Source of the DNA: Burkholderiales bacterium
GTDB taxonomy: Bacteria > Pseudomonadota > Gammaproteobacteria > Burkholderiales > SG8-39
Assembly: GCA_035632415.1 (NCBI GenBank)
Contig: DASQGW010000153.1
Span: 4,821 to 68,820, forward strand
Length of the DNA: 64,000 bases
Reading direction: 5' to 3'
Shown: positions 8,597-58,726 of the stretch, one piece after another
Layout of the letters: every line of letters begins with the position of its first letter
Numbering within the stretch: the first letter of the stretch is position 1
Position numbers and translations under genes: made by a program
Notes under the pieces: model-generated
What the model was told of the DNA's origin: nothing
Databases searched by the model: none
The model's input: the letters and a program-made list of their open reading frames with translations, nothing else

Positions 8597-9046
<450 letters not shown>

Positions 9047-40899: not shown

Positions 40900-40949
40900 A
40901 GCGGTCTAGTATCGGCCTCTGCGCTGCGCCGCAGCAAAGAGGAGGGCGG

Positions 40950-42399: not shown

Positions 42400-42433
42400 A
42401 CCTTTCAACCTGGTCAAGTGAATGGAGGAAGCG

Positions 42434-43645
42434 ATGTCTAAGTGGAAGAAATTGAGTGCAGCGGTTGCGTTGGCGCTTTGCGCCGGGGGAGTGCAAGCCC
42501 AGATCTCGGGCGGCGTCGTCAAGATCGGCGTGCTGAACGACATGTCGAGCCTGTACGCCGACATCGGCGGTCCGGGATCGGTGGCCGCGGCCAAGATGGC
42601 GGTCGAAGACTTCCTGAAGAGCTCGAAATCGGGCCTCAAGGTGGAGGTGGTGTTTGCCGACCACCAGAACAAGCCCGACGTCGGCTCGCAGATCGCGCGC
42701 CAGTGGTACGACGTGGACGGCGTGGATGCCATTTTCGACGTGCCGAACTCCGGCGTCGCCCTCGCCATCAACCAGATCACCAAGGACAAGGGCAAGGCCT
42801 TCATCAACACGGGTGCGGCAAGCTCGGACCTCACGGGCAAGGCGTGCTCGCCGAACACCGTGCACTGGCTCTACGACACCTGGATGCTCGCGCACGGCAC
42901 CGGCGGAGCGATGGTGAAGACGGGCGGTGACACCTGGTTCTTCCTCACGGCCGACTATGCGTTCGGCCATGCGCTCGAGCGCGACACTGCCGAGGTCGTG
43001 AAGGCGAACGGCGGCAAGGTGCTCGGCGCGGTGCGCCATCCGCTGAACACGCAGGATTTCTCGTCCTTCCTGCTGCAGGCGCAATCGTCGAAGGCGAAGG
43101 TGATCGGGCTCGCCAATGCCGGCGGTGACACGGTCAATTCGATCAAGCAGGCGTCCGAGTTCGGCATCACCAAAGGCGGCCAGCAGCTCGCGGGCCTGCT
43201 CGTGTTCCTCACCGACGTGCATGGCCTCGGGCTCGAGAAGGCGCAGGGGCTTGTGCTTACGGAGACCTTCTACTGGGACATGAACGACGGCACGCGCGCC
43301 TGGGCGAAGCGCTTCGCGCCTCTCAACAAGGGCCAGTACCCGAGCATGGACCATGCGGGCGTCTACGCCGCGGTGTTGCACTACCTGAAGGCGGTTGCCT
43401 CCGCGAAGACGGACGACGGCACGAAGGTGATTGCCGAAATGAAGAGGCTGCCGACCGATGATCCGCTCTTTGGCAAGGGGCGCGTGCGCCAGGACGGCCG
43501 CAAGATCCACCCGGCTTATCTCTTCGAGGTGAAGAAGCCTTCCGAGTCGAAGTACGCGTACGACTACTACAAGCTGCGCGCCACCATCCCGGCCGAGCAG
43601 GCGTTCCGGCCCGAGAAGGAAGGCGGCTGCGACCTGGTGAAGTAA
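42434..43645 (+). CDS. ABC transporter substrate-binding protein (LivK/amide-type, periplasmic)
   Basis: ATG at 42434 (MSKWKKLSAAVALALCAGGVQAQ signal) within track ORF 42422..43645. Type I periplasmic-binding-fold pattern VKIGVLNDMSSLYADIGG. Confidence 0.88.
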   Translation: MSKWKKLSAAVALALCAGGVQAQISGGVVKIGVLNDMSSLYADIGGPGSVAAAKMAVEDFLKSSKSGLKVEVVFADHQNKPDVGSQIARQWYDVDGVDAIFDVPNSGVALAINQITKDKGKAFINTGAASSDLTGKACSPNTVHWLYDTWMLAHGTGGAMVKTGGDTWFFLTADYAFGHALERDTAEVVKANGGKVLGAVRHPLNTQDFSSFLLQAQSSKAKVIGLANAGGDTVNSIKQASEFGITKGGQQLAGLLVFLTDVHGLGLEKAQGLVLTETFYWDMNDGTRAWAKRFAPLNKGQYPSMDHAGVYAAVLHYLKAVASAKTDDGTKVIAEMKRLPTDDPLFGKGRVRQDGRKIHPAYLFEVKKPSESKYAYDYYKLRATIPAEQAFRPEKEGGCDLVK

Positions 43646-43654
43646 GCAGTCGAA

Positions 43655-44539
43655 ATGCCCGAGATCTTCGGCATCCCCACGGCGGCGCTCTTCGGCCAGC
43701 TTCTGATCGGGCTGATCAACGGCTCGTTCTACGCGCTGCTGTCGCTCGGCCTCGCCGTGATCTTCGGGCTGCTCAACATCATCAACTTCACCCATGGCGC
43801 CCAGTACATGCTGGGCGCCTTCACCGCCTATCTGCTCTTGAACAAACTGGGCATCGGCTATTGGCCCTCGCTCCTGATCGCGCCGGTGGTGGTCGGTATC
43901 ACCGGCGTGATCATCGAGCGATTCATGCTCAAGCACCTCTACAAGCTCGACCACCTGTACGGGCTGCTGCTCACCTTCGGCCTCGCGCTCATCATCCAGG
44001 GGGTGTTCCGCAACGAGTACGGCTCTTCCGGACAGCCTTATCCGATTCCCGAGCAGCTTTCGGGCGGCCATAACCTCGGCTTCATGTTCCTGCCGAACTA
44101 TCGCGCCTGGGTCATCGTCGCGTCGCTCGTCGTCTGCTTCGCCACCTGGTTCGCGATCGAGAAGACCAAGCTTGGCTCGTATCTTCGCGCGGCGACCGAG
44201 AACCCGGCGCTCGTCCAGGCCTTCGGCATCAACGTGCCCCGGATGATCACGATCACCTACGGCTTCGGCGTGGGGCTCGCCGCGTTCGCCGGAGTGATGG
44301 CCGGGCCGATCTACCAGGTGAGCCCGCAGATGGGGGCCGACCTGATCATCGTCGTGTTTGCGGTGGTGGTGATCGGCGGCATGGGCTCGATCATGGGATC
44401 GATCGTCACCGGCTTCGGCCTCGGCGTCATCGAGGGCTTTACCAAGGTCTTCTACCCGGAGGCTTCGAATACCGTGATCTTCATCATCATGGCCATCGTC
44501 CTGATGATCAAGCCCGCGGGCCTGTTCGGTCAGAGATGA
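43655..44539 (+). CDS. branched-chain amino acid-type ABC permease (LivH-like)
   Basis: 294 aa, polytopic; GLINGSFYALLSLGLAVIFG and INFTHGA motifs. Confidence 0.9.
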   Translation: MPEIFGIPTAALFGQLLIGLINGSFYALLSLGLAVIFGLLNIINFTHGAQYMLGAFTAYLLLNKLGIGYWPSLLIAPVVVGITGVIIERFMLKHLYKLDHLYGLLLTFGLALIIQGVFRNEYGSSGQPYPIPEQLSGGHNLGFMFLPNYRAWVIVASLVVCFATWFAIEKTKLGSYLRAATENPALVQAFGINVPRMITITYGFGVGLAAFAGVMAGPIYQVSPQMGADLIIVVFAVVVIGGMGSIMGSIVTGFGLGVIEGFTKVFYPEASNTVIFIIMAIVLMIKPAGLFGQR

Positions 44540-44552
44540 GCGGCGCCCGTCA

Positions 44553-45473
44553 ATGAAGCATCACCGCATCGCTTTCCTCGTGATGGTGGCCGTGTTCGTG
44601 CTTGCGCCGCTCGCGATGTACCCGGTGTTCCTGATGAAGGTGATGTGCTTCGCGCTCTTCGCCTGCGCATTCAACCTGCTCATCGGCTACGGCGGCCTGC
44701 TTTCCTTCGGCCATGCCATGTTCCTCGGTACCGCCGGCTACGCCTCGGCGCATTCGGCGAAGCTCTGGGGCTTTGCGCCCGAGTTCGCGATCCTCTTCGG
44801 CACCGCCGCCGCGGCGCTCCTCGGCATCGCCACCGGGCTGATCGCGATCCGTCGCCAGGGCATCTACTTCGCCATGATCACGCTCGCGCTCGCGCAGATG
44901 ATCTTCTTCTTCTACCTGCAGGCGAAGTTCACGGGCGGCGAGGACGGCATCCAGGCCGTGCCGCGAGGGCGCCTGTTCGGCCTTGTCGACCTGTCGAATA
45001 TCTGGGCGATGTACGCGACGGTGTTTGCCGTCTTCGTGGGCGGTTTCCTGATCATCTACCGGGTGATCCACTCGCCCTTCGGCCAGGTGCTGCAGGCGAT
45101 TCGCGAGAACGAGGCCCGCGCGACCTCGCTGGGCTACGACACGGCGCGCTACAAGCTGCTCGCCTACGTGCTCTCTGCCACACTCGCCGGGCTCGCCGGG
45201 GCGACGAAGGCGATCGTCTTCCAGCTCGCTTCGCTCACCGACGTGCACTGGTCGATGTCGGGCGAAGTGGTGTTGATGACCCTCCTCGGCGGCCTTGGCA
45301 CCGTGTTCGGTCCCGTGGTGGGCGCGCTCGCCGTCGTCTCGATGGAGAACTACCTCGCGCAGCTCGGTGCGTGGGTCACCGTCGTGCAGGGCGTCATCTT
45401 CGTGATCTGCGTGCTCGCCTTCCGCCGGGGCATCATCGGCGAGCTCGCGCGGCTAATAAAGAAACCGCTCTGA
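44553..45473 (+). CDS. branched-chain amino acid-type ABC permease (LivM-like)
   Basis: 306 aa, polytopic; NLLIGYGGLLSFGHAMFLGTAGY motif. Confidence 0.9.
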   Translation: MKHHRIAFLVMVAVFVLAPLAMYPVFLMKVMCFALFACAFNLLIGYGGLLSFGHAMFLGTAGYASAHSAKLWGFAPEFAILFGTAAAALLGIATGLIAIRRQGIYFAMITLALAQMIFFFYLQAKFTGGEDGIQAVPRGRLFGLVDLSNIWAMYATVFAVFVGGFLIIYRVIHSPFGQVLQAIRENEARATSLGYDTARYKLLAYVLSATLAGLAGATKAIVFQLASLTDVHWSMSGEVVLMTLLGGLGTVFGPVVGALAVVSMENYLAQLGAWVTVVQGVIFVICVLAFRRGIIGELARLIKKPL

Positions 45474-45837
45474 GCGCCTCGAGCAAGCTGCCGCGGTAAT
45501 ACCAGACGAGCCCGCACATCGCATACAGGGAGAGCGAAGCGGGGAAGTTCGCTTCGCGCATCAAGTCCAGCGCGATGGGGTTCTTGAAGCGCCAGTAGAG
45601 CCAGTAGCAGCCGTCGACGCTGAACCAAGTCGCGAAAAGCATGAGCGGCCACCAGCGCCATCGGCGCTCGACAATCACCCGCAGGCTCCATGGCGCCGTG
45701 AGGTAGGCAAAGAACGCCATGATCAGGCTGATCGGGATGTCCCAGTCTGGCGCGGGCGTGAAGTAAGAGCCAGCGATGAGTAATGCGACGCCGATGCCGA
45801 GCGTCGCTAGCTTCCAGGGCCGCAGATACTCCCGCAT
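45433..45837 (-). CDS. hypothetical small membrane protein (134 aa)
   Basis: Internal ATG at 45837 (MREYLRPWKLATLGIGVALLIAGSYF) of track ORF 45433..46344. 3-4 hydrophobic, Trp-rich segments. ATGA overlap with the upstream SDR stop. 3' end overlaps the convergent LivM-like gene by 41 nt. Confidence 0.55.
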   Translation of the reverse strand: MREYLRPWKLATLGIGVALLIAGSYFTPAPDWDIPISLIMAFFAYLTAPWSLRVIVERRWRWWPLMLFATWFSVDGCYWLYWRFKNPIALDLMREANFPASLSLYAMCGLVWYYRGSLLEALRAVSLLAARARR

Positions 45838-46565
45838 CAGGCGCCGAGGTTGAGCACGACCCCCGACAGCTGGCCGGCGCGAGCCGAGGCGAGGAAGCAG
45901 ACCGTGTCGCCGACCTGCTCGGGCTCGATGACGCTGCCCATCAGCTCCGCGTAGCGGCTTTCGTCGCCGAACTTCATCTTCGCCTGGGTCTTCATCAGGG
46001 TGATGATCCGGTCGGTCCTGGTGGACGGCGGATGCACGCCGACGACGCGCACGCCGTTCTGCGCATACCCACGCCCCAGGGCCTTGGTGAAGTTGGCCAG
46101 GCCTGCATTGGCGGTGGCGCCGCAGATGTACTCGAAGCTGCCGTGCTCGCCCGCCATGCCGATGACGTTGACGATGACGCCGTCCTTCCGGGCCTTCATC
46201 TTCGGGTAGATCTCGCGCGTGAGGTTGATGAAGCCGAACACCTTGAGCTCCCAGGCATGGCGCCACTTCGCCTCGTCGACCGACTCGATCGTGCCGCCGG
46301 GAATGTCGCCGGCGTTGTTCACCAGGATGTCGACCTCTGCGCATTCCTTGGCGAGGCTGCGCAGGGCCGCGCCGTCTCGTAGGTCGACCGAATGCGTCTT
46401 CACGCTCCCGCCGAGGCCGCGGGCGGCCTGGGCCAGCCGATCCTTGTCCCGCGCGGCAAGGTGCACCGTGCAGCCCTCGGCGACGAAAGCCTTGGCGCAG
46501 GCGAGGCCAATGCCCTTCGAGCCACCGGTGACGAGAACTGATTTACTCTTCAAGCCGAGGTCCAT
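45837..46565 (-). CDS. SDR-family oxidoreductase
   Basis: 242 aa; VLVTGGSKGIGLA cofactor motif and NNAG. Active-site region not clearly canonical by eye. Confidence 0.8.
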   Translation of the reverse strand: MDLGLKSKSVLVTGGSKGIGLACAKAFVAEGCTVHLAARDKDRLAQAARGLGGSVKTHSVDLRDGAALRSLAKECAEVDILVNNAGDIPGGTIESVDEAKWRHAWELKVFGFINLTREIYPKMKARKDGVIVNVIGMAGEHGSFEYICGATANAGLANFTKALGRGYAQNGVRVVGVHPPSTRTDRIITLMKTQAKMKFGDESRYAELMGSVIEPEQVGDTVCFLASARAGQLSGVVLNLGA

Positions 46566-46591
46566 TCGTTTGTCCCTAAAGGAGAGAGTTG

Positions 46592-46885
46592 ATGCCGGCC
46601 TATATCATCGCAATGGTCAACATAAAAGACCCGCAGAAATACCAGGAATATGCGAAACGGGCGGGTCCCGCCAATGCGAAACACGGCAGCCGCTTCCTGG
46701 TGCGGGGCGGCAAGAAGACCACGCTCGAAGGCGACATTCCCTTCGAGCGCATCGTCGTCAGCGAATTTCCCGACGTGGAAAGCGCGAAGAAGTTCTATGA
46801 CTCGCCCGAGTACCAGGACGCCCGCAAGCACCGCCTGGGCGCCGCCGACTTCCACATGGTCATCGTCGAGGGCGCGCAGCCTTGA
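46592..46885 (+). CDS. DUF1330 domain protein
   Basis: ATG at 46592 (track ORF begins at TTG 46589), preceded by an AAAGGAGAG Shine-Dalgarno. MPAYIIAMVNIKDPQKYQEY...FPDVESAKKFYDSPEYQ is characteristic of DUF1330. Confidence 0.8.
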   Translation: MPAYIIAMVNIKDPQKYQEYAKRAGPANAKHGSRFLVRGGKKTTLEGDIPFERIVVSEFPDVESAKKFYDSPEYQDARKHRLGAADFHMVIVEGAQP

Positions 46886-46921: not shown

Positions 46922-48217
46922 CTAGGGTCGGGCTGGAGCGTTCTTAGCAGCCGAAGTGCCGGCGATCCGCCCGAGCGCGACGGCGCAGAGCAGCCCGTTG
47001 CCCGAGAGATAGCCCCACACATGCGCGCCCGAGACGCCGCGCGCCGCGCCGCCGCCCGCGAACACGTTCGGCAGCGGCAGCACGCGCGCCGACTCGTCTA
47101 TGACCAGACCGCCTTGCGTGTGGAAGAGGGCGCCGGTGACCTTGATGCCGTAGTACGGCGCGACAAGCTTCGGCTTCGTCGTGAAGTCGCGGCCAAAGGG
47201 GTCGCGCCCCTTGCCTTCGGCGAAGCGCTCAACCCGACGCAGCGTCTCCCCCAGCTTCGGCAGCTCGTGTGCCGGGCGCACCGCGCCGGCGGCCTGCGCA
47301 TCGCGATAGTCGGGAAAGGTCATGCCGAGCTCGTGCAGTCGCTGGTCGTAGATGCACCAGGCGATGCCGCCAGGCTGGCGAATCACCGGGAGGCATTGCT
47401 CGGAGTAGCCGAGGTGCTCGTTCGAGAAGCGTTCGCCGTTCTCGTTGACCTGGATGCCGCCCTCGGTCATCAGCGCCCACGTAATCAGCACGCCATGCGG
47501 CGTCGCGACGGAGCCGTGGCCCTGGTAGGCGCTCATGTCCGCAACCGACGCGCCGATCGCAGTGCCCCATCTCATGGCGTCGCCCTGGTTGCCGACGTGC
47601 CCGAAGAAGAGCGCCGAGGAAATGTCCGGCAGGTAGCGTGCCACCATCTCCTTGTTGCCGCCGAAGCCCGAGCAGGCAAGGACGAGCGCCCCGTACTCCA
47701 CTTCCTCGAAGCTTCCGTCCGGCCGCTCGAACCGCACGCGCTCGCGATCGACGTCGGTGACGCGGGCGGAGGTCAGGATGTCCACCTCCGAGCACGCGCG
47801 CAGCAACGCCGCCATCAGCGCTTCGCCCGTCTTCTCCTGCAGCGCATGCATGCGCAGCACGCGGTGCCCGGGGTAGGTGAAGCCCTGAAGCACGTCGAAG
47901 CGCAGGCCATGGCAATCGTCCAGCCACTCGAGCGTCGGCCCAATGCTGCGCGTGACGCTGTCGACGATGCGCGGATCGGCTTCGCCGTGGTTCTTGCGCC
48001 GCACGTCGGCCGCGAAGAGCTCCGGCGAATCGTCGATGCCGGCGGCGCGCTGGTAACGCGTGCCGGCGGCGGGAATGAAACCGGAGGAGAGCGCCGTCGA
48101 GCCGGATGGACTTGCATCGCGCTCCAGGACCAGCACCTCGGCGCCGGCATCGCGCGCCGCCAGCGCGGCGGTGAGGCCGCAAGCGCCGGCGCCGACGATG
48201 ACGACCGGAACCTTCAA
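46922..48217 (-). CDS. FAD-dependent oxidoreductase (fumarate reductase / KstD-type flavoprotein family)
   Basis: 431 aa; VVIVGAGACGLTAALAARDAG dinucleotide fold; GSTALSSGFIPAAG; C-terminal FAGGGAARGVSG. Last gene of the long operon. Confidence 0.8.
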   Translation of the reverse strand: MKVPVVIVGAGACGLTAALAARDAGAEVLVLERDASPSGSTALSSGFIPAAGTRYQRAAGIDDSPELFAADVRRKNHGEADPRIVDSVTRSIGPTLEWLDDCHGLRFDVLQGFTYPGHRVLRMHALQEKTGEALMAALLRACSEVDILTSARVTDVDRERVRFERPDGSFEEVEYGALVLACSGFGGNKEMVARYLPDISSALFFGHVGNQGDAMRWGTAIGASVADMSAYQGHGSVATPHGVLITWALMTEGGIQVNENGERFSNEHLGYSEQCLPVIRQPGGIAWCIYDQRLHELGMTFPDYRDAQAAGAVRPAHELPKLGETLRRVERFAEGKGRDPFGRDFTTKPKLVAPYYGIKVTGALFHTQGGLVIDESARVLPLPNVFAGGGAARGVSGAHVWGYLSGNGLLCAVALGRIAGTSAAKNAPARP

Positions 48218-49689
48218 CTGGTCGGCCGGTGCAGGTAGCGTCCGCGCGGCTTTCCCGTCACGTTGCCGTTCTCGCAGGCAAGCTCGCCGCGCAGGAACGT
48301 AGCTTTCACCCGGGCCGAGAGCTCGATGCCCTCGAACGGCGTATAGCCTTGGGTCGACTCGGACTCCTTCGCGCGGATCGTCCAGCTCTCGGCCGGATCG
48401 ACGAGGGCGATATCCGCGTCCAGCCCTTCGGCGATGTCGCCTTTGGAGTTCAGGCCGAAGCGCCGCGCCGGGTTGTAGCTCGTCAGCGCAGCCATCCGGT
48501 TATAGGACAGGCCTCGCTTGCTTCCTTCCGAGACGAGCGCCGGCAGCAGGTATTCGGTGCCCCCGAAGCCCGATTTCGCCAGCCAGATGTTGCCGAAGGC
48601 CTTCTTTGCCACCTTGGTCTCGTGGCGGCAGCAGGCATGGTCGCTGACGACCCAGTGCACATTGCCCGCGAGCACCTGCTCCCACAAGTACTCGACGTCC
48701 TCGCGCGGCCGGATGGGCGGGTTCACCTTGGCAAGCGGCCCGGCCTTCGAATTCACGTCGAGAACGAGATGGCCGACGGTGACCTCGCGGCGGAAGTCGA
48801 TGTGCGGAAAGACCGCCTGCATCTGCAGCGCCGCGCTCAGCGCCTTGCGCGAGGACAGGTGCAGCAGGTTGATATTGGGCAACGCCGCCTCGTTAGCGAG
48901 GTAGGAGGCAATGAACACCGCCAGGCCTTCCGAATGCGGCGGCCGCGCCGCGTGGTAAGCCTCGAGGCCTTTCAGCTTGCCGGCGGTCTCCACCATCTTG
49001 GTGTACGCAGTCATGATCTCCGCGGTCTCGCAATGAAGCGACAGGCTGATCTGCGAGGCTTTCTCCGGGAAGCGCTCGCGCGCCTTCTGGACGCCCCGCA
49101 TGACGAACTCGAAGTGCGCGTAGTCGTAGCGCTCTTCGGGCCCGATCATCAGGAAGTCGCGCTGGGCATCGGAGCGGCCGTGCAGGCCGTGCGAGCCGTA
49201 GAACATGAAGATCTTGAAGGACGGCACGCCGTGCTTTTCCACCAATGATGGAATTTCGGAAATGTGCATGCGGTCCATCGGCGCCAGGTGATAACCATAG
49301 TCGGCGTGGTAGCGGCCCTTGGAGATGTCGAGCACCTCGGGGAAGAACTTGCGATACGGCCCGCCCTTGTTGAGGTAGTACTGCCCGGTGCGGAAGTAGG
49401 TCAGCATCGAGGTGACGCCGCCCTGCGCGGCGGCTCGGCTTTCGCTTGCCGCGTCTTCGCGCAGCGGCGAATAGATGCCGGCGTGCATGTGGGCGTCGAC
49501 CACGCCCGGGAAGGCGAGCCGGCCCTTGCCGTCGTAGACCTGCTTTGCCTCCTTCGCGGGGATTCCGGCGCCGATCTTCGCGAACTTGCCGCCGCGGACG
49601 GCGATGTCGGCATCATGGATCGCGTGGCCCTGCGGCCGCACGACGCGCACGTTCTTGATGAGCAAATCCCATTTCTTTGCGGTTGCCAT
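48214..49689 (-). CDS. cyclic amidohydrolase (hydantoinase/dihydropyrimidinase/enamidase-like)
   Basis: 491 aa; DLLIKNVRVV...GVVDAHMH metal-binding HxH at the expected N-terminal position; VSDHACC late motif; ADIALVDP. 4-nt overlap with the downstream gene. Confidence 0.8.
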   Translation of the reverse strand: MATAKKWDLLIKNVRVVRPQGHAIHDADIAVRGGKFAKIGAGIPAKEAKQVYDGKGRLAFPGVVDAHMHAGIYSPLREDAASESRAAAQGGVTSMLTYFRTGQYYLNKGGPYRKFFPEVLDISKGRYHADYGYHLAPMDRMHISEIPSLVEKHGVPSFKIFMFYGSHGLHGRSDAQRDFLMIGPEERYDYAHFEFVMRGVQKARERFPEKASQISLSLHCETAEIMTAYTKMVETAGKLKGLEAYHAARPPHSEGLAVFIASYLANEAALPNINLLHLSSRKALSAALQMQAVFPHIDFRREVTVGHLVLDVNSKAGPLAKVNPPIRPREDVEYLWEQVLAGNVHWVVSDHACCRHETKVAKKAFGNIWLAKSGFGGTEYLLPALVSEGSKRGLSYNRMAALTSYNPARRFGLNSKGDIAEGLDADIALVDPAESWTIRAKESESTQGYTPFEGIELSARVKATFLRGELACENGNVTGKPRGRYLHRPTS

Positions 49690-49698
49690 GTCTTCTCC

Positions 49699-50544
49699 CT
49701 ATTTTTCGTATCGTTTCCCGAGCTCCAGCATCTGCGGCGTACCGATCACGCCATTGAGACCCTGGAAGTCGAGCATGCGGTTGCGCAGGGCGGCGGTCGT
49801 GCCGTCGCGCTTCAGCACGGCGAAATATTCCTGCGCGGCGAAGGCGAGGCAGCGCGCGAGTCCTCCCGGGAAGATGGCAATGCGGTAGCCGAGCGACTGC
49901 AGGCTCTTCGCATCGAGCACCGGCGTCTTGCCGCCCTCCACCATGTTGGCGAGCATGGGAACGCGCTTGGCGAAGCGGCCAGTGATGGTCTTCATCTGCG
50001 CTTCGCTTTGCGGCGCCTCGATGAAGAGCACATCGGCGCCCGCTTCGACATACCGTTCGGCGCGCTCCACGGCCTTGTCGAGGCCTTCAACGGCAATCGC
50101 GTCGGTGCGCGCCATGATGAGCGCGCCAGTCCTCGCGTCCAATGCTGCCTGGATCTTGCCGACCATTTCTTCGGCGCTGACGAGCGCCTTGCCGTCGAGA
50201 TGCCCGCAGCGCTTCGGCGTGACCTGGTCCTCGAGCTGGATCACCGTCGCGCCGGCGCGCTCGAACTGCTTCACGGTGCGCGCAACGTTGAGCGCATTGC
50301 CGAAGCCGGTGTCGGCGTCGACGATGACCGGGAGCCCGATCCGCTCGCGGATGTTCTCCAGCGTGTCGGCCACTTCGCTCGCGGTCACGAGCCCGATATC
50401 GGGCCGACCAAGGCGCGTATAGGCGATGCTCGCGCCCGAGACGTACACCGCCTCGAACCCTGCCTGCTCGGCGAGAAGCGCCGTCAGCGCGTCGTAGACG
50501 CCGGGGGCGAGGAGGAGCGGATCACGCTCAAGCCTTTCGCGCAA
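49699..50544 (-). CDS. isocitrate lyase/PEP mutase superfamily lyase (methylisocitrate / 2,3-dimethylmalate lyase-like)
   Basis: 281 aa; GASIAYT...PVIVDADTGFGN and the catalytic loop KRCGH, which marks the lyase rather than the mutase branch. Confidence 0.82.
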   Translation of the reverse strand: MRERLERDPLLLAPGVYDALTALLAEQAGFEAVYVSGASIAYTRLGRPDIGLVTASEVADTLENIRERIGLPVIVDADTGFGNALNVARTVKQFERAGATVIQLEDQVTPKRCGHLDGKALVSAEEMVGKIQAALDARTGALIMARTDAIAVEGLDKAVERAERYVEAGADVLFIEAPQSEAQMKTITGRFAKRVPMLANMVEGGKTPVLDAKSLQSLGYRIAIFPGGLARCLAFAAQEYFAVLKRDGTTAALRNRMLDFQGLNGVIGTPQMLELGKRYEK

Positions 50545-51010
50545 GTTTCTTCTCCAGGTGGGGAAGCAGACCGCCGTCGCGGATGATGGCCATCAGGAAT
50601 GCCGGGATCGGCTCGCAGGCGAGCGTCTCGCCGGTGGTGCGATTCACCACCTTGCCGCGCTCGGCATCAACGTCGAGTTCGTCGCCGACCCGGATGCGCT
50701 TCGCATCGGCGCAGACGACGGCGGGCAGGCCGAGGTTGATCGCGTTGCGGTAGAAGAGCCCGGCGAACGATTCGGCGATGAGCACCGCGACACCCAGATG
50801 CTTGAGCGCTTCGGGTGCCTGCTCGCGCGAGGAGCCGGCGCCGAAGTTGCGGCCGCCGACGACGATGTCGCCCGGCTTCACTTCCCTGGCGAACGCAGGC
50901 GAGACCGATTCCAGGCAGTGCTTCGCGATTTCCTCGATGCCGAACTTCATGTAGCGGCCGGGCGCGATGACGTCCGTGTCCAGGTTGTCGCCGAAGACCC
51001 AGGCTTTCAC
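50528..51010 (-). CDS. aconitase-family hydratase small subunit (LeuD/HacB/DmdB type)
   Basis: In-frame GTG at 51010 (VKAWVFGDNLDTDVI) within track ORF 50528..51196. GGRNFGAGSSREQAP motif. GTGA overlap with the large-subunit stop. Confidence 0.85.
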   Translation of the reverse strand: MKAWVFGDNLDTDVIAPGRYMKFGIEEIAKHCLESVSPAFAREVKPGDIVVGGRNFGAGSSREQAPEALKHLGVAVLIAESFAGLFYRNAINLGLPAVVCADAKRIRVGDELDVDAERGKVVNRTTGETLACEPIPAFLMAIIRDGGLLPHLEKKLARKA

Positions 51011-52242
51011 GCGAGCAGATCCCGGGGGTCGGTGATGCGTCCGGTGATCGCCGAGGCCGCCACCGTGTAAGGCGAGGCGAGGTAGACCTGCGCCGCCGGA
51101 TCGCCCATGCGGCCCTTGAAGTTGCGCGCGGTGGTGGAGATGGTCACGGTATTCGCGGCGAGCAGGTTGGGGCCATAGCCTGCGCACATGCCGCACGAGT
51201 TGGCGAGCAGCTCCGCGCCGGCATCGAGCAGGACGCGGAGCGTGCCTTCGCGCTCTGCGGCCTGCTGGTCGCGCAGGCTCGCCGGTGCTACGAGCAGGCG
51301 AGTCTTCGCCTTGCGGCTTTTAAGCACCTTGGCGGCCATGCGCAGGTCGTCGAGCTTGGCCCCGGTGCACGCTCCTATGTAGGCGAGGTCGATCTTCTCG
51401 CTGAAGTCGCCCACGGGCTTGGTATTGGCGGGGCTGTGCGGCGCCGCGACCTGGGGCGCGAGCTCAGTTGCGTTGAATCGATGGTGCTGGAGCATCGGGG
51501 CGCCCGGGTCGCTGTCCCAGATCTCGCCTTTGCCGAGGTACTTCAGGGTGACCTCGTCTGAGGCGACCAGCCCGGTCTGGCCGCCGAGCTCGGCCGTCAT
51601 GTTGCAGAGGGTCATGCGCTCCTGCATCGAGAGTGCGCGGATCGCCGGGCCGCGGTATTCGACGGCTTGATACTGGCCGCCGTCCATGCCGAAGCGGCCG
51701 ATAAGGAAAAGCATGATGTCCTTCGCCGAGACGCCCGGAGCGAGCGCGCCGTCGAAGTCCATCGCAATCGTGTGCGGGACTTTGAGCCAGATCTCTCCGG
51801 TGACGACTACGCCGAGCATCTCGGTCGCGCCGATGCCGAACATGTACGTAGCGAAGGCGCCGCCGGTGGGCGAGTGGCTGTCGCCGCCGACGGCGAACAT
51901 GCCCGGACGCAGGTGGCCGCGCTCGGGGAGCACGACATGGCAGATGCCTTGCGCGTCGTAGAACGCGTCGACGCCGGCTTCCTTCACCCAGTCCTGCGCG
52001 ATCCGGATGATCTTGCGGCTCTCGTCGTCGTAGGCGGGAAGGTAGTGGTCGGTGATGACCACGAGCTTCGACGGATCCCAGACCTTTGCGCCGAGGCGCT
52101 CGAGCCTGGGCTTCAGCCTCCGCGGGCCGCTCGAGTCGTGCACCATCGCGAGGTCGACCTTGCAGGTGACGATCTCCCCCGGCGTCACCGATGCACGGCC
52201 GGCGGCGCGGGCGACGAGTTTCTGTGCGAGCGTTTGTGCCAT
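51007..52242 (-). CDS. aconitase-family hydratase large subunit (LeuC/HacA/DmdA type, ~410 aa short form)
   Basis: In-frame ATG at 52242 (MAQTLAQKLV) within track ORF 51007..52383. VGGDSHSPTGGAF; Fe-S ligand contexts IGACTG and NSCGMCAG. Confidence 0.85.
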   Translation of the reverse strand: MAQTLAQKLVARAAGRASVTPGEIVTCKVDLAMVHDSSGPRRLKPRLERLGAKVWDPSKLVVITDHYLPAYDDESRKIIRIAQDWVKEAGVDAFYDAQGICHVVLPERGHLRPGMFAVGGDSHSPTGGAFATYMFGIGATEMLGVVVTGEIWLKVPHTIAMDFDGALAPGVSAKDIMLFLIGRFGMDGGQYQAVEYRGPAIRALSMQERMTLCNMTAELGGQTGLVASDEVTLKYLGKGEIWDSDPGAPMLQHHRFNATELAPQVAAPHSPANTKPVGDFSEKIDLAYIGACTGAKLDDLRMAAKVLKSRKAKTRLLVAPASLRDQQAAEREGTLRVLLDAGAELLANSCGMCAGYGPNLLAANTVTISTTARNFKGRMGDPAAQVYLASPYTVAASAITGRITDPRDLLA

Positions 52243-52243
52243 C

Positions 52244-52945
52244 TCAGAGTCCCAGATACGCGCGCTTGAGCTCCGCGTTCGCGAGGAGCTCGGCCGGCGT
52301 GCCCTGGAAGACGATGGCGCCGTTCTCGAGGACGTAGGCGCGATTGGCGATCTCGAGGGACTGGCCGACGTTCTGCTCGACAAGCAGGATCGGCAGTCCC
52401 TCCTTGTTCAGCCGGGCGATGAGCGCAAAGAGCTCCTCGACGGCGACCGGCGAGAGGCCGAGCGACGGCTCATCGAGGATCAGCAGCCGCGGCTCTGCCA
52501 TCAGGCCGCGGCCAATCGCCAGCATCTGCTGCTCTCCGCCCGAGAGCGTGCCGGCGCGCTGGGCCGTGCGCTCCTTCAGCTTGGGGAACACGCTGAACAC
52601 GTGCTCGAGGTTCCTCTCGCGGTTCGCGCGGGCGCGGCGATAACTGCCGAGCTCGAGATTCTCGTGCACGGTGAGATTGGGAAAGACGCGGCGGCCTTCT
52701 GGAACATGGATGAGCCCCGCGGCGACGATATCCGTGTACCGCGAGCCCGCAATACTGCGATCTTCGAACTCGATTGTGCCGGAAAAGGCCGGCAGCAGGC
52801 CGGAGAGCGTGTTGTTGAGCGTGGTCTTTCCCGCGCCATTGGAGCCGAGGAGCGCGACCACTTCGCCCGGGCGGACGGCGAGGTCGATGCCGCGGAGGAC
52901 TTCGACCCGCCCATAGCCGCCGCGCAGCGCCGCGACTTCAAGCAT
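52244..52945 (-). CDS. ABC transporter ATP-binding protein (LivF-like), operon-embedded
   Basis: 233 aa; Walker A GSNGAGKTT; signature LSGGEQQML. Confidence 0.9.
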   Translation of the reverse strand: MLEVAALRGGYGRVEVLRGIDLAVRPGEVVALLGSNGAGKTTLNNTLSGLLPAFSGTIEFEDRSIAGSRYTDIVAAGLIHVPEGRRVFPNLTVHENLELGSYRRARANRERNLEHVFSVFPKLKERTAQRAGTLSGGEQQMLAIGRGLMAEPRLLILDEPSLGLSPVAVEELFALIARLNKEGLPILLVEQNVGQSLEIANRAYVLENGAIVFQGTPAELLANAELKRAYLGL

Positions 52946-53678
52946 AGGCGGCCCTCATGCGTGCGGCGGTTCCATGGCCGAGATACGCCTCGACGACGGC
53001 GGGGTCCGACGTGACTTCGCGCGGCGTGCCGTGCGCGATCAAGCGGCCGTTCGAGAGGACCCACGCCTCGTCCGAGAGGTTCATGACCGCGCGCAATACG
53101 TGCTCGACCATCAGGACGCTGATGCCGCCATCGCGGATGCCACGGATCACCGGGAGCACTTCATCGATCTCCCGCGGGTTTAGGCCGGCGAGAACCTCGT
53201 CGAGCAGCAAGAGGCGGGGCTCGGTCGCCAGCGCTCGTGCGAGCTCGAGCCGCTTGCGACCTGCGATGGTGAGGTTCGCCGCCAGCTTGTCGAGCTGTAC
53301 CGCGAGGCCGACCCGCGCCGCGACGGCTTCGGCTGCGCCGAGCGCGCTCGCTCGCGAAGGATGGCGAAGGTGGGCGCCGACCGCGATGTTTTCGCGCACG
53401 GTCTGGGCACCGAAGGGCTGCACGATCTGGAACGTCCGCGCCATGCCGAGGCGGCAAGCCTCGTGCGGCGGGATGCCGGTGATGTCGCGTCCTTCGAGCC
53501 GGACGCGACCGTGATCGGGCCGGACGAAACCGGAGATCAGGTTGAACACGGTGGTCTTGCCCGCGCCGTTCGGGCCGATCAGGGCCACGATCTTTCCCCG
53601 AGGCAAGGCGAGCGACACGTCGTCTACGGCGGCGAGGCCGCCGAAGCGCACAGAGAGCTTTTCGGCCTCGAGGATCAC
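52938..53678 (-). CDS. ABC transporter ATP-binding protein (LivG-like), operon-embedded
   Basis: In-frame GTG at 53678 ([14 protein letters not shown]) within track ORF 52938..54485. Walker [14 protein letters not shown] overlap with the permease stop. Confidence 0.88.
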
Positions 53679-54703
53679 GCCTTCCGCCGCAGCAGGCCGA
53701 GGACACCGCTCGGCATGAAGGTGATCATGAGCACGAGGAGGGCGCCGTAGAGCATGAGGCTCACGCCCGGCGCGTTCTCGAAGAGCCCGCGCGTGCCTTC
53801 GCCGAGGAGCTGCAGCAGCACGGCGCCGAGCACCGGTCCCCACAGCGTGCCGAGCCCGCCGACGATCGGCGCAAGAAGCGCTTCGATCGAGACCCCCGGG
53901 CCATAGGCGAGCCCGGGATCGATGTACTGGAAATATTGCGCGTAGAACACGCCGCCCAGCGCCATGAGCGCCCCGGAGAGGGCAATCGCGCCGAGCTTCA
54001 CCCGAAAGACGTTCACGCCGAGCGCCGCGGCCGAATCCTCGTTGTCCCGTACGGCTTGCAGCCAGGCGCCGTAGCGCGAATTCTTCAGCCACCAGCCGAC
54101 GACGAGGCCGGCCAGCACGAAGGCGAGGATCACGTAGAGGTAACCTGTTTTCGTGGCGAACTGGAAGTTCTCCGGCCCGGCCTTCAGCTTCACCATGATG
54201 CCCACGCCTGCGCCGGTAAAGTCCACGTTGTTCGCGAGTATGCGGAACACTTCCGCGAAGGCGAGGGTGACGAGCGCGAAGTACGAGCCGCGCAGCCCGT
54301 AGCGGAAGGAAAGGGCGCCGATGAAGGCGCCGACTGCAGCACCGAGCAGGAGAGCCGCGGGCAGCGTCGCCCAGGCATTCCATCCGAGCTTCGCCTGCAA
54401 GACGGCAGCCGCATAGGCGCCGGTGCCGAAGAACACCGCATGGCCGAAAGAGAACTGGCCGCCGAAGCCGGCGAGGATGTTCCATGCGAGGCCGAGCAGC
54501 GCCGTATACAGGACCATGATCGCGGCGTTCAGCAGGAAGCCCGAGCTCGCCACCATCGGCAGGGCCGCGACGAGAGCTCCAAAAACCGCGATGGGAACGA
54601 GCTGCTTCAGGCGCGCGCTCCGAAGAGGCCCTGCGGGCGAAAGAGCAGCACCGCGATGAAGATGAGGAAGATGCCGATCTGGCCGAGCGATTCGCCGAGC
54701 CAC
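53675..54703 (-). CDS. ABC permease (LivM-like), operon-embedded; start uncertain
   Basis: [23 protein letters not shown] motif. The GTG at 54703 would overlap the upstream permease by 97 nt. The first TM helix ([15 protein letters not shown]) begins right after a CTG at 54610 that forms a CTGA overlap with the upstream stop. Confidence 0.8.
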
Positions 54704-55479
54704 AGGCTACCCACGGACTCCACCACCCCTATGAGGAGCCCACCGACCAGCGCGCCCGCGAAGCTGCCCATCCCGCCCAGCACGACGATCGTGAAAGCGA
54801 TCAGGACGAAGCCGTTGCCGACGGTCGGATTCACGTAATAGGCGGGCAGGAGGAAGCAAGCCGCTGCGCCGAGGCAGGCGAGACCGATGCCGAAGCTCAT
54901 CGCGAAGACGTGCTCGACGTCGATGCCGACCAGCCGGGCACCCTGCCTCTCCTTGGCGCACGCGCGTATCGCGCGGCCGAGGTCGGTGGTGCGCATGATG
55001 GTGAGCAGCACACCGGCCGTGGCGCCGGCGCCAAAGAAGGCCACGATCTTGGGCAGCGCGATCATCGCCGGGCCGATCGGCACCGTGGTGAAGGTGTACG
55101 CGGTGTCGATGGTGCGCGTGTCCGACTTGAAGAGGAAGAGCGCCAGGTTCTCGAGCACGATGGCGAGCCCCAGGGTGACGAGCAGGATGTTCTCGTCGCG
55201 CCCGTGGCTCGCCACGCCGATCACGTAGCGGTAGGCGAGGTACCCCGCCGCGAACATGGCGGGCACCATGACGACGATGGATACGTACGGATCGAGGCCC
55301 AGGCTCCTCTGCAGGTAGTACACGCCATAGAGCGCCATCATCAGCGCCGCGCCGTGCGCGAAGTTGATGATGTGCAGCACGCCGTAGATCAGCGTGAGCC
55401 CGAGCGCGATCAGCGCATAGACCGCCCCGGTCGTGAGTCCGTTAAGGAGCGAGGGCCATAGGATCGAGAGCTCGAACAA
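54607..55479 (-). CDS. ABC permease (LivH-like), operon-embedded
   Basis: 290 aa; LNGLTTGAVYALIALGLTLIYG and INFAHGA motifs. Confidence 0.9.
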   Translation of the reverse strand: MFELSILWPSLLNGLTTGAVYALIALGLTLIYGVLHIINFAHGAALMMALYGVYYLQRSLGLDPYVSIVVMVPAMFAAGYLAYRYVIGVASHGRDENILLVTLGLAIVLENLALFLFKSDTRTIDTAYTFTTVPIGPAMIALPKIVAFFGAGATAGVLLTIMRTTDLGRAIRACAKERQGARLVGIDVEHVFAMSFGIGLACLGAAACFLLPAYYVNPTVGNGFVLIAFTIVVLGGMGSFAGALVGGLLIGVVESVGSLWLGESLGQIGIFLIFIAVLLFRPQGLFGARA

Positions 55480-55485
55480 TCCCGC

Positions 55486-56697
55486 TCAGCCCTTCCACGG
55501 GAACGAGGGCTGCGTCTCGGCGTAGGTCTTGGGCAGCACGACTTTGATGTCGTTCTTCAGCACCTGCATCATCAGCGGCTGCGCTCCCTGGTTCTGACCG
55601 TTCACGAACTTGGTCGGGCCGTACGGCATGAAGTGCTTGTCCCAGGTCGAGCCTGCGAGCGCGTTGACGATGTCGTCGCGCTTCGTCGACTTCGCCCGCT
55701 CGATCGCGTCGGCGAGGAGGTGCACCGCCGAGTAGTTGAGGTATACCTCGTAGGTGAAGAACTGATCCTTCATCGCGTCGACGCGCTTCTTCAGCGCCCA
55801 GGCGCGCTTGTCCTTCGGGTTGAACCAGTGGTTCACGTCGAGCACGCCGTTCGCGGCGTCGGAGAATTCTCTTACGAACTTGTACGACGAGGCGGCGCCG
55901 CCGAGCACCGAGTAGATCGCCTTCGGCACCACGTTCTGCTGCTTCATCGTGCGCACGAAGAGCGCGTACTCGTTGTAGTAGTTCGCCGGGATGACGATGT
56001 CGGGATTGACCGCCTTCACCCGCAGCACGATGTTGTTGAAGTCCCGCGTCGGGTTGGCGTGCTTGATCACTTCCTTGACTTCGAAGCCGAGGTGCGGCAG
56101 CTGCTGCGAGAGGAGGTTCGCCGTCCCCGTGCCGAAAAGCGACTCCTCGTGCACGATGACGACGGTCTTGGCCGGCTTGCCCGCGAGGTTGTTGAGCAGG
56201 ACGAGGTGGTTCATCGCCGTGTCGGCGCAGACCTTGTAGCCGGGGGCGAAGCGGAAGGTGTTGGCAAGCCCGCGCTCGACGATCTGGTCGGCGACGCCGA
56301 CGTCCACCACGTGAGGGATGTTGTACTTCGCGGCAGCCTGCGTCGTGGCGAGGCAGATGGCGGAGGCATAGGCGCCGACGATGGCGGACACGCCCGCCTC
56401 GTTCATCTTCTCGACTTCGGCGGCGCCGATTTCAGGCTTGGACTGCGCGTCGCCCAGCACCGCCTCGAGCTTGGCGCCGCCGAGCGACTTGATGCCGCCC
56501 GCCTTGTTGATGTCGTCGATCGCCATCTGGGCGCCGAGGCGCGAGAGGTTTCCGGAGTAGGCGAGGAAGCCGGTCACCGGATGCAAGACGCCGACCTTGA
56601 TGGCCTGGCCCTGGGCGCGTACGCCGAGCGGCAGCGCCGCGGTCGCGGCCAGCGCGGTGGTATTGATGAGGAACTGCCTGCGGTTCGTGGTGTTCAT
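55486..56697 (-). CDS. ABC substrate-binding protein (LivK-type fold) with twin-arginine-like signal
   Basis: 403 aa; N-terminus MNTTNRRQFLINTTALAATAALPLGVRAQG; IKVGVLHPVTGFLAYSG type I PBP pattern. Confidence 0.88.
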   Translation of the reverse strand: MNTTNRRQFLINTTALAATAALPLGVRAQGQAIKVGVLHPVTGFLAYSGNLSRLGAQMAIDDINKAGGIKSLGGAKLEAVLGDAQSKPEIGAAEVEKMNEAGVSAIVGAYASAICLATTQAAAKYNIPHVVDVGVADQIVERGLANTFRFAPGYKVCADTAMNHLVLLNNLAGKPAKTVVIVHEESLFGTGTANLLSQQLPHLGFEVKEVIKHANPTRDFNNIVLRVKAVNPDIVIPANYYNEYALFVRTMKQQNVVPKAIYSVLGGAASSYKFVREFSDAANGVLDVNHWFNPKDKRAWALKKRVDAMKDQFFTYEVYLNYSAVHLLADAIERAKSTKRDDIVNALAGSTWDKHFMPYGPTKFVNGQNQGAQPLMMQVLKNDIKVVLPKTYAETQPSFPWKG

Positions 56698-57059
56698 TTC
56701 TTCTCTCCGTTTAGTGATTCGCCCATGTCATTCCATACCTTCTGGTCCACGAGCTTGCCTGCGCGCACCGTGAACCGGTCGATGAAGCGGATGCCCTCGT
56801 ACCTGCTGCCGTCGAGGCGCTCGCCGTACAGCGTGCCGAAACAATAGACGACGTCGCCGGCGATGTCGAAGCGCTCGTAAGCCTTGCGCGCGCTGCGGTA
56901 GCGGCCTTTTGAGAACTCGACCAGGGCCTCCAGGGAATCGAAGCGCCGGCCGCCCGGGAAGACCATGTGGAATCCCGGGGCGAGGCGATCGCGCGCGGCG
57001 GCGAGATCGCGGCGCTCCATCGCCGCAAGATAGCTCTTGACTGTCTCCTCGGGCGTCAT
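56694..57059 (-). CDS. SnoaL-like / NTF2-fold protein
   Basis: 121 aa; N-terminal TPEETVKSYLAAMERRDLAAARDRLAPGF pattern typical of SnoaL/NTF2-like proteins. 4-nt overlaps on both sides. Confidence 0.65.
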   Translation of the reverse strand: MTPEETVKSYLAAMERRDLAAARDRLAPGFHMVFPGGRRFDSLEALVEFSKGRYRSARKAYERFDIAGDVVYCFGTLYGERLDGSRYEGIRFIDRFTVRAGKLVDQKVWNDMGESLNGEKK

Positions 57060-58611: not shown

Positions 58612-58613
58612 GG

Positions 58614-58720
58614 TCTTGACCCCCTGACAAGGGGGTCGTGAGCGGCAGGCGAGCGGGAGGTTTGATTTTCGAAAACCCCCCGGCGCTTCGCGCCACCCCC
58701 CTTATCAGGGGGGCAATAGC
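58614..58720. repeat. nested-palindrome intercistronic element, copy 2
   Basis: CCCCCTGACAAGGGGG (58620-58635) ... GGCGAGCGGGAGG ... GAAAAC ... CCCCCCTTATCAGGGGGG (58696-58713). Same orientation, same flanks (TCTTGAC ... GCAGAA) and same architecture as the copy at 12134-12258. Confidence 0.8.
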
Positions 58721-58726
58721 AGAACC

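Follow-up and report, generated by a model that had tools for sequence, protein, structure and literature searches.

We analysed a stretch of 64,000 nucleotides (hereafter, the window) from a Burkholderiales bacterium (assembly GCA_035632415.1, contig DASQGW010000153.1, positions 4,821 to 68,820), with a G+C content of about 66%, and focused on five genes encoded on its minus strand between positions 46922 and 52242. These genes specify a flavoprotein, a cyclic amidohydrolase, a carbon-carbon lyase, and the two subunits of a hydratase resembling LeuC and LeuD. They form a conserved, uncharacterised module, whose enzyme families and reaction types are all already known. The five genes probably serve a single pathway, in which a cyclic amide would be opened and the resulting substituted succinate desaturated, hydrated, and cleaved. 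The best explanation of the data as a whole is a conserved catabolic module with an oxindole as favoured substrate, and we regard it as an evenly balanced proposition. The assignment of the substrate itself, 2-oxindole-3-acetate (oxIAA, oxidised auxin) or a similar oxindole, is drawn from the neighbouring genes only and is more tentative. Our search of the literature turned up no account of this operon, and a paper on riboflavin catabolism that it brought up proved to be unrelated. The genes in question are listed here:

46922-48217, minus strand: FAD_binding_2 flavoprotein of 431 amino acids, fumarate-reductase/TcuA-like and soluble; proposed arylsuccinate (substituted-succinate) dehydrogenase.
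48214-49689, minus strand: binuclear-metal cyclic amidohydrolase of 491 amino acids (Amidohydro_1/3); proposed lactam/cyclic-amide ring opener.
49699-50544, minus strand: C-C lyase of 281 amino acids from the isocitrate-lyase/phosphoenolpyruvate (PEP)-mutase superfamily, with a KRCGH loop; proposed substituted-malate lyase.
50528-51010, minus strand: LeuD-like small subunit, of 160 amino acids, of a short-form aconitase-family hydratase (Aconitase_C).
51007-52242, minus strand: LeuC-like large subunit of the hydratase, of 411 amino acids, with three Fe-S cysteines (Aconitase, 293 bits).

An initial annotation of the region had named these five genes with their families, coordinates, and the motifs IGACTG, NSCGMCAG, GGRNFGAGSSREQAP, KRCGH, and DAHMH. 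All of these are found in the minus-strand translations, and the Pfam and NCBIfam families agree with them. The junctions between the genes are overlaps or gaps of at most 9 nucleotides. This close spacing persists upstream, through an ATP-binding cassette (ABC) transporter, up to position 58611, which identifies the five genes as the distal end of a longer gene string. Its order is iadF, iadG, iadH, and iadI homologues, a racemase-family gene, a SnoaL gene, the ABC transporter, LeuC, LeuD, lyase, amidohydrolase, and flavoprotein. A scan for promoters and terminators returned no more sites than in shuffled sequence. None of the five proteins reaches the cut-off of an equivalog model, and the curated models that are passed are of the subfamily kind only.

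To study the distribution of the module, we scanned species-representative genomes with the LeuC-like protein and obtained 85 loci, whose genes were counted from tblastn maps of the flanks; the counts are lower bounds, since contig ends intervene. LeuD was found in 82 of these loci, the lyase in 49, the amidohydrolase in 40, and the flavoprotein in 37. The same Liv-type ABC transporter lies collinear with LeuCD in 34 loci (53-96% identity), an upstream GntR/UTRA regulator, assigned to its family with Pfam, occurs in 28, and a SnoaL-like gene in 10. Homologues of the module are 46-96% identical and occur in Comamonadaceae, Burkholderiaceae, Rhodobacteraceae, Rhizobiaceae, metagenome-assembled genomes of Deltaproteobacteria, and others. 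The carriers are soil, freshwater, marine, and plant-associated Proteobacteria, including Variovorax, Polaromonas, Rhodoferax, Paraburkholderia, and a plasmid of Burkholderia plantarii. Cultured carriers include Variovorax sp. PDNC026, Paraburkholderia largidicola, P. caribensis, B. plantarii KACC 18964, Allorhizobium sonneratiae, and Rhodovulum sp. 12E13. The association of these genes is far above chance. One locus (L056, in WNWL01000002.1) comes from an assembly titled Oceanobacillus sp. HTM 045; given its 72% G+C and its alphaproteobacterial-type gene order, this is probably a case of a mislabelled organism or of contamination.

The first reaction of the pathway seems to be open to three kinds of enzyme. 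Among the 85 loci, the ring opener is the amidohydrolase in 40, a pair of Hydantoinase_B and Hydantoinase_A proteins (HyuAB) in 22, and a PuuE-like deacetylase in 5. The HyuAB genes (552 bits for Hydantoinase_B and 290 bits for Hydantoinase_A in Pfam), which belong to the ATP-dependent hydantoinase/oxoprolinase/caprolactamase family, occupy the same place as the amidohydrolase gene, and no locus carries both. The PuuE-like protein belongs to the polysaccharide-deacetylase family and scores 128-142 bits with the model of the allantoinase PuuE. In the loci with at least 8 kb of sequence downstream of LeuC, the lyase and the flavoprotein accompany the amidohydrolase in 17 cases, HyuAB in 10, and the PuuE-like gene in 2. 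This distribution indicates that three unrelated families fill one pathway step by non-orthologous displacement, and through this three-way swap the function of the amidohydrolase is linked to that of LeuCD, the lyase, and the flavoprotein. In line with this, hydantoinases and a PuuE-like enzyme have been reported to hydrolyse the same cyclic imide (PMC11424739). Relatives of HyuAB are ATP-dependent lactamases (PMC8453981).

The amidohydrolase of the window reaches the cut-off of neither of the named models that it resembles, i.e., allantoinase AllB (215 bits, cut-off 358) and D-hydantoinase (184 bits, cut-off 393). Its best match of solved structure is the allantoinase of Escherichia coli (3e74, 141 bits, aligned end to end), followed by L- and D-hydantoinases at 120-130 bits. 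All residues that bind the two metal ions (HxH, Lys, His, His, and Asp) align with those of 3e74 in the segments DAHMH, FKIF, LHCE, LLHLSS, and SDHA. The 60 best matches among solved structures (141-54 bits) include no enamidase and consist of allantoinases, hydantoinases, dihydropyrimidinases, and dihydroorotases. An exact look-up of the amidohydrolase sequence gave no record.

The plasmid p1 of the rice pathogen Burkholderia plantarii (L088, NZ_CP066800.1), which is conjugative, exemplifies the PuuE-like variant. It carries the GntR, LeuCD, flavoprotein, and lyase genes between genes of the IS6, IS481, and Tn types. The divergent side has two PuuE-like genes, an isochorismatase gene, and a major facilitator superfamily transporter. 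Downstream lie a porin, an electron-transfer flavoprotein (ETF), an acyl-CoA dehydrogenase, and a CoA-transferase with 542 bits on the succinate-glutarate CoA-transferase model.

The large subunit of the hydratase passes the model NF001614 (509 bits, cut-off 385), which is of subfamily rank only, and the small subunit passes TIGR02087, the "LeuD/DmdB family" (184 bits, cut-off 109). The equivalogs of leucine biosynthesis were all missed: leuC (238 bits, cut-off 560), leuD (50, cut-off 116), LEU2 (351, cut-off 611), and leud (163, cut-off 246). The nearest solved structures, in full-length alignments, are those of the isopropylmalate/citramalate isomerase of Methanocaldococcus jannaschii (4nqy, 331 bits, for the large subunit and 3vba, 174 bits, for the small one). 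The proteins have the hallmarks of the aconitase superfamily, with three Fe-S cysteines in IGACTG and NSCGMCAG and with the small-subunit GxGSSRE motif present as GAGSSREQAP. The LeuD specificity loop reads GRYMKFG in the window and differs between clades in the alignment of orthologues. The operon contains no leuA, leuB, prpC, or acnD. Since the leucine equivalogs are missed and the catabolic operon is conserved across Beta-, Alpha-, and Deltaproteobacteria, the data support the proposal of the initial annotation that this LeuCD pair is something other than the housekeeping leucine enzyme. Three loci of Cupriavidus (L046, L057, and L086), including one on the megaplasmid of C. metallidurans CH34, have LeuCD homologues 62-63% identical beside a GntR regulator; for 8-10 kb around, the lyase, the flavoprotein, and any ring opener are missing. 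In these bacteria, the hydratase may have been put to a different use.

The lyase matches PEP_mutase of Pfam (153 bits) and misses the two prpB equivalogs, TIGR02317 (302 bits, cut-off 354) and NF008455 (256 bits, cut-off 353). Neither prpC nor an aconitase gene is present in the operon, so the lyase lies outside a standard methylcitrate context. Among solved structures, it is closest to PrpB-type enzymes (209-216 bits), ahead of the petal death protein (185), the 2,3-dimethylmalate lyase of Aspergillus (3fa3, 173), and oxaloacetate acetylhydrolase (154). The K(K/R)CGH catalytic loop of the isocitrate-lyase/PEP-mutase superfamily reads PKRCGH in the window and in nearly all of 51 aligned orthologues, with one PKKCGH, and the motifs ANMVEGG and IFPGG..R are kept across this set as well. 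In the window and in these 51 orthologues, the motif NITEFG of PrpB is replaced by NMVEGG. The equivalents of Thr212 and Phe214 of PrpB are V and G in the lyase of the window, and that of Arg241 is kept.

The flavoprotein matches FAD_binding_2 (150 bits) and remains below the cut-offs for flavocytochrome c (185 bits, cut-off 285) and for TcuA (NF006130, 120 bits, cut-off 369; TIGR02485, 71 bits, cut-off 373). The operon holds no TcuB-like gene, and the protein is thus placed outside TcuA. Its best match of solved structure is the flavocytochrome c3 fumarate reductase 1qo8 (165 bits), with urocanate reductase at 121 bits. In the alignment with 1qo8, the equivalents of His365, Arg402, and His504 are kept, and those of Glu378, Arg381, and Arg545 are W, M, and Y. 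These changed positions argue that the flavoprotein is not a plain fumarate or succinate enzyme. The motifs QGHGS, RF, LFHTQGG, and GYLSGNG are nearly invariant and conserved in 40 orthologues. Since the motifs of both lyase and flavoprotein are near-invariant across all the variants of ring opener, one specificity may be expected for the whole set.

From the enzyme families and the gene neighbourhoods, we derived the following scheme. The amidohydrolase would open a cyclic amide to a 2-substituted succinate, the fumarate-reductase/TcuA-like flavoprotein would desaturate it to a substituted maleate or fumarate, the LeuCD-like Fe-S enzyme would add water to give a substituted malate, and the KRCGH lyase would split this in retro-aldol fashion, yielding a 2-oxo acid together with a carboxylic acid. 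Flavoprotein, hydratase, and lyase together thus represent a "desaturate, hydrate, cleave" sequence for a free 1,2-dicarboxylic acid, which requires that the ring opener yield a 2-substituted succinate. The substrate would accordingly be either a cyclic amide with a CH2-COOH group on the carbon adjacent to the carbonyl, or a succinimide. The idea of a single route of ring opening, hydration, and retro-aldol cleavage, already put forward in the initial annotation, is supported by the comparative genomics of the 85 loci.

The clue to the substrate comes from the upstream part of the gene string, which comprises the following features:

52244-56697, minus strand: Liv-type ABC transporter with two ATPases, two permeases, and a substrate-binding protein; internal gene boundaries approximate.
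55486-56697, minus strand: substrate-binding protein of this transporter (Peripla_BP_6, 176 bits).
56694-57059, minus strand: SnoaL-like NTF2-fold protein of 121 amino acids (SnoaL_2).
57056-57832, minus strand: Asp/Glu/hydantoin-racemase-family protein of 258 amino acids (Asp_Glu_race, 80 bits).
57829-58611, minus strand: isatin hydrolase of 260 amino acids, iadI homologue.
58727-59956, minus strand: iadH homologue, a fusion of a ChsH2-type zinc-ribbon/OB-fold (DUF35) protein with a short-chain dehydrogenase/reductase (SDR) (zf-ChsH2, OB_ChsH2_C, and adh_short in Pfam); start approximate.
59953-61113, minus strand: iadG homologue, SCP-x-type thiolase-like protein (Thiolase_C_1).
61110-62593, minus strand: iadF homologue, AMP-forming acyl-CoA synthetase; start approximate.

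The product of 57829-58611 matches the solved isatin hydrolases 5nnb, 5nmp, and 5nna with 377-379 bits (E about 1e-112). On a plasmid of Roseibium aggregatum, the iad operon consists of a MarR gene, iadC (PDR/VanB reductase), iadDE (Rieske oxygenase), iadF (AMP-binding), iadG (thiolase-like), iadH (SDR fusion), iadI (cyclase), and iadJ (SDR). Positions 62570-57841 of the window are collinear with its iadF, G, H, and I, at identities of 50% (515 amino acids), 67% (382 amino acids), 52% (409 amino acids), and 62%, respectively. In the window, iadC, iadD, iadE, and the MarR gene gave no tblastn match, and iadJ matched only an SDR gene on the divergent strand, at 29%. A fusion of the form iadFGHI-racemase-(SnoaL)-LeuCD-(lyase)-amidohydrolase was found in 17 species-level genomes of soil Burkholderiales, which have a divergent transporter of the tripartite ATP-independent periplasmic (TRAP) type and often lack the lyase and the flavoprotein. 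The neighbours point to oxindole or auxin metabolism, rather than to that of pyridines, as the likely setting of the module.

The remaining genes of the string are less telling. The substrate-binding protein gives no clue to a ligand, its best solved match being a Leu/Ile/Val-binding protein (127 bits) whose entry names no bound ligand. Homologues of the SnoaL-like protein, 36-79% identical, adjoin the LeuCD module, including in distant alpha- and deltaproteobacterial loci without iad genes. The racemase-family gene is present in every iad-fused locus and in L082. Its product has only remote matches to allantoin and hydantoin racemases (29 bits), and is possibly a racemase for a chiral cyclic amide or arylsuccinate. 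The further neighbours that we inspected in alphaproteobacterial and iad-fused loci varied from locus to locus and gave no useful clue. A thiamine pyrophosphate enzyme beside the Allorhizobium locus was considered as an isatinate (2-aminobenzoylformate) decarboxylase and rejected, as it resembles acetolactate synthases only, at a score below the cut-off.

Because the module follows iadF, G, H, and I homologues in one fused string, both in the window and in 17 related genomes, we tentatively favour oxIAA or a close relative as the substrate. OxIAA is the main product of plant auxin inactivation. Opening of its lactam would give 2-(2-aminophenyl)succinate, which would be converted to (2-aminophenyl)maleate; hydration would then yield 2-(2-aminophenyl)malate, which is dioxindole-3-acetate with its ring opened. 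The lyase would split the latter into isatinate and acetate, so that the route would join the iad pathway at the step of the isatin hydrolase and continue to anthranilate. The module would thereby stand in for the missing oxygenase and IadJ when the starting point is oxIAA and not auxin. A HyuAB-like hydantoinase, of the family present in 22 related loci, is reported by Ebenau-Jehle (2012) to open 2-oxo-indoleacetate to (2-aminophenyl)succinate. In the anaerobic breakdown of indoleacetate, (2-aminophenyl)succinate is accepted as an intermediate, and the iaa cluster of Aromatoleum and Azoarcus passes through it or its CoA ester (PMC8360864). That cluster goes on via a CoA transferase, a B12 mutase, and benzylmalonyl-CoA dehydrogenase (PMC8360864), whereas the route in the window would handle the free acid.

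In the iad route, IadCDE together with IadJ turn indole-3-acetate into dioxindole-3-acetate, whose acetate side chain is taken off by IadF, G, and H; IadI acts as an amidase, and isatin and isatinate come before anthranilate (bioRxiv 10.1101/2025.10.25.684584; PMC9613470). The window shares with the iad operon (iadABCDEFGHIJK..R of Variovorax, Achromobacter, Bradyrhizobium, and Roseibium) the collinear iadF-G-H-I block, isatin hydrolase included, and isatinate, the end product proposed here, is an iad intermediate (PMC9613470). In place of iadCDE, iadJ, and the MarR gene, the window has the racemase-like gene, SnoaL, the ABC transporter, and the five-gene module. Published descriptions of iad operons include no LeuCD, lyase, hydantoinase, racemase-like gene, SnoaL, or ABC transporter (bioRxiv 10.1101/2025.10.25.684584; PMC9613470). 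Variovorax consumes the 2-hydroxy-indoleacetate/oxIAA in its medium (PMC9613470), and the revised iad route bypasses oxIAA (bioRxiv 10.1101/2025.10.25.684584). Taken together, these two observations call for a separate route for oxIAA, and Variovorax carries the module (L032 and L087). With a little more reserve than for the substrate, we suggest that the module might be this missing bacterial route, in which the hydroxyl group, otherwise the work of the iad oxygenase and IadJ, would be added without oxygen, by flavin desaturation and Fe-S hydration of the free acid. The two-carbon side chain would be removed by the isocitrate-lyase-type enzyme or, where the lyase is missing, by IadFGH after re-cyclisation to dioxindole-3-acetate, and different lineages would have drawn on three unrelated lactamase families for the opening step.

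Several observations weigh against this assignment. Most carriers, in Comamonadaceae and Alphaproteobacteria, have no iad gene nearby, and the canonical iad loci on plasmids of Roseibium and Sulfitobacter have no module nearby. In five iad-fused loci with ample flanking sequence, LeuCD and the amidohydrolase persist with neither flavoprotein nor lyase within 10 kb, and the linear scheme does not account for them. The close homologues of the amidohydrolase, 84-91% identical, seemed at first to speak against a five-gene unit: in two genomes the homologue (84-85%) stands alone beside a gene for a cysK-type pyridoxal-phosphate (PLP) enzyme, and in two further genomes it is followed by the flavoprotein, without LeuCD or lyase. 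The scan of the 85 loci decided this question in favour of one unit. The lyase retains the equivalents of F186 and P236 of PrpB in the alignment, residues that form the small pocket for the C2-methyl group. Such a pocket would favour the cleavage of a 3-aryl-malate to glyoxylate and 2-aminophenylacetate over the isatinate route. Finally, there is a hydrolase of the isochorismatase family, which no proposed step needs; of its 23 occurrences, 20 are in the company of HyuAB or PuuE-like genes. It always follows HyuA, or else joins PuuE-like genes, and is almost never found with the amidohydrolase (L034, L053, L056, L066, L072, L080-L084, L087, L089, and others). An imide or an N-carbamoyl substrate fits this hydrolase better than a simple lactam does.

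The PLP-enzyme gene that adjoins amidohydrolase homologues was also considered as a pathway partner and dropped, as its product passes the cysteine synthase A equivalog (548 bits, cut-off 387). The close relative at locus L005 (positions 6536-9998) has iadFGHI and the racemase gene followed by an 82-amino-acid remnant of LeuD, a TctC fragment, an FAD_binding_3 monooxygenase, an Amdase-like gene, TctC, and then the amidohydrolase and the flavoprotein. The hydratase and lyase part seems to have been replaced there by an oxygenase-based cassette.

The alternative that survives best, while still unlikely, is the catabolism of cyclic imides. A substituted succinimide or maleimide, alkyl or carboxyalkyl, would be opened, the half-amide hydrolysed, and the succinate desaturated, hydrated, and cleaved. 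Examples are methylsuccinimide, dimethylmaleimide, and the tetrapyrrole-derived methyl-ethyl-maleimide and hematinic acid, with products such as pyruvate and propionate or glutarate. The isochorismatase-family hydrolase that travels with HyuAB or PuuE-like genes in 20 loci belongs to a family that includes maleamate and N-carbamoylsarcosine amidases, which speaks for this reading. The continuation of the B. plantarii plasmid locus into ETF, acyl-CoA dehydrogenase, and a succinate-glutarate-type CoA-transferase (542 bits), and the presence of the module in many aquatic bacteria, also fit, as does the imidase activity reported for two of the three ring-opener families, the hydantoinases and the PuuE-like enzymes (PMC11424739). 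However, the commonest variant, that of the amidohydrolase, has no second amidase in its operon, an activated imide does not need the ATP-dependent HyuAB, and the repeated fusion to iadFGHI is left without a reason. Our literature search found no report of such a pathway.

Another, improbable reading is the catabolism of hydantoins or ureides, in which a 5-substituted hydantoin or a dihydropyrimidine with an acetate side chain would be opened to an N-carbamoyl-aspartate-like compound and decarbamoylated, the aspartate or succinate analogue then being processed. The best named models of the ring openers, i.e., AllB (215 bits), PuuE (128-142 bits), and hydantoinase A/B, would suit it, as would the remote likeness of the racemase-family protein to allantoin and hydantoin racemases and the isochorismatase family, which includes N-carbamoylsarcosine amidase. 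Yet every model score is far under the equivalog cut-off, the amidohydrolase variant lacks a decarbamoylase, and the products would be central metabolites with no call for a dedicated flavoprotein, hydratase, and lyase. Hydantoin-utilisation and cyclic-imide systems do resemble the module in their interchangeable cyclic-amide hydrolases, their racemase-family gene, and, often, their isochorismatase-type amidase, but they end at an amino acid or a plain dicarboxylate, without the triad of flavoprotein, Fe-S hydratase, and lyase.

We consider quite improbable a route in which a tricarballylate-like acid, or its cyclic imide, would be turned by the TcuA-like flavoprotein into an aconitate analogue, by the aconitase-family pair into an isocitrate analogue, and by the PrpB-like lyase into pyruvate or glyoxylate and succinate. 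The end of the methylcitrate cycle (aconitase or AcnD, then PrpB) and TcuA do provide known parallels for aconitase-family hydration followed by PrpB-type cleavage and for the desaturation of a substituted succinate. TcuA is among the model matches of the flavoprotein (120 bits), methylisocitrate lyases come nearest to the lyase, in which the equivalent of Arg241 is kept, the LeuD loop has a Lys where homoaconitase has Arg, and MmgE/PrpD-family genes adjoin the module in 7 loci, with another such gene at the end of the window. But this Lys is not conserved, with Q, H, or R in other clades, and the scores of the window proteins lie under the cut-offs. The leaving-group pocket of the lyase is changed (V and G for Thr212 and Phe214 of PrpB), the flavoprotein lacks the second carboxylate-binding Arg, and both prpC and the TcuB partner are absent. 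Moreover, cis-aconitate and isocitrate would call for no dedicated enzymes.

Of equally low probability is the reading put forward in the initial annotation, that the genes form an aerobic counterpart of the branch known from nicotinate fermentation, in which an enamidase-like opener, a DmdAB-like dimethylmaleate hydratase, and a Dml-like 2,3-dimethylmalate lyase would work on a compound derived from pyridine. All three superfamilies are indeed present: in Eubacterium barkeri, as in the window, a ring-opening amidohydrolase is followed by a LeuCD-type Fe-S hydratase (DmdAB) and a retro-aldol lyase of the isocitrate-lyase superfamily (Dml), the KRCGH loop is intact, and the LeuD-like subunit passes the LeuD/DmdB subfamily model. 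The specific kinship with the E. barkeri enzymes, however, was not supported, since the amidohydrolase is of the allantoinase/hydantoinase type, with enamidase outside its 60 best solved matches, and the lyase is nearer to PrpB than to the solved dimethylmalate lyase. The annotation had itself remarked on the absence of a molybdenum hydroxylase, a B12 mutase, and a methylitaconate isomerase, which we confirm: none occurs in the string 46922-62593 and none was identified among the other open reading frames of the window. In contrast to E. barkeri, the double bond would be made by a flavoprotein and not by a mutase and isomerase sequence, genes for pyridine hydroxylation are absent, the hosts belong to the Proteobacteria and are presumed aerobic, and the neighbours are auxin-degradation genes. 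The likeness to the nicotinate and dimethylmaleate pathway is one of analogy of chemistry and not of membership. The last alternative, that a leucine LeuCD and a PrpB of the methylcitrate cycle merely lie beside unrelated genes, is hardly credible: isopropylmalate/citramalate isomerase and methylisocitrate lyase do give the best matches of solved structure, but all equivalog cut-offs are missed, leuA, leuB, prpC, and acnD are absent from the operon, and the idea is contradicted by a gene set kept across classes with its transporter, regulator, and ring openers.

Some features around the gene string complete the picture of the window. Downstream of the flavoprotein gene, an apparent gap of 357 nucleotides before an SDR gene (45837-46565) is mostly occupied by a DUF1330 gene (46589-46885, plus strand, 122 bits), which is convergent with the operon, and a DUF1330-SDR pair also follows the amidohydrolase region in L003 and L005. 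A second Liv-type ABC operon, with two ATPases, a binding protein, and two permeases, lies at 36957-45473 (plus strand) and is preceded by AMP-binding and RNase T-like genes. The region 36957-45473 is syntenic with the surroundings of the stand-alone amidohydrolase in L001 and L002, which suggests a conserved chromosomal site that may take in different catabolic cassettes. At the other end, divergent from the iadF-like gene, an SDR gene (62658-63431, plus strand) lies ahead of the start of an MmgE/PrpD-family gene (63446-63856, plus strand), which runs off the window end. The latter is 31% identical to the MmgE/PrpD-family gene that adjoins the module in L038, and PrpD-family genes flank the module in 7 distant loci.

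Whatever the substrate, the operon outlines how substituted succinates are degraded without CoA, by a "desaturate, hydrate, cleave" route, and it offers a clean case of a single metabolic step filled by three unrelated enzyme families. If the link to auxin is true, the module would account for the consumption of oxidised auxin by root and algal microbiomes, a step which the known iad and iac routes do not cover, and it would provide new genes for engineering auxin-balancing commensals.

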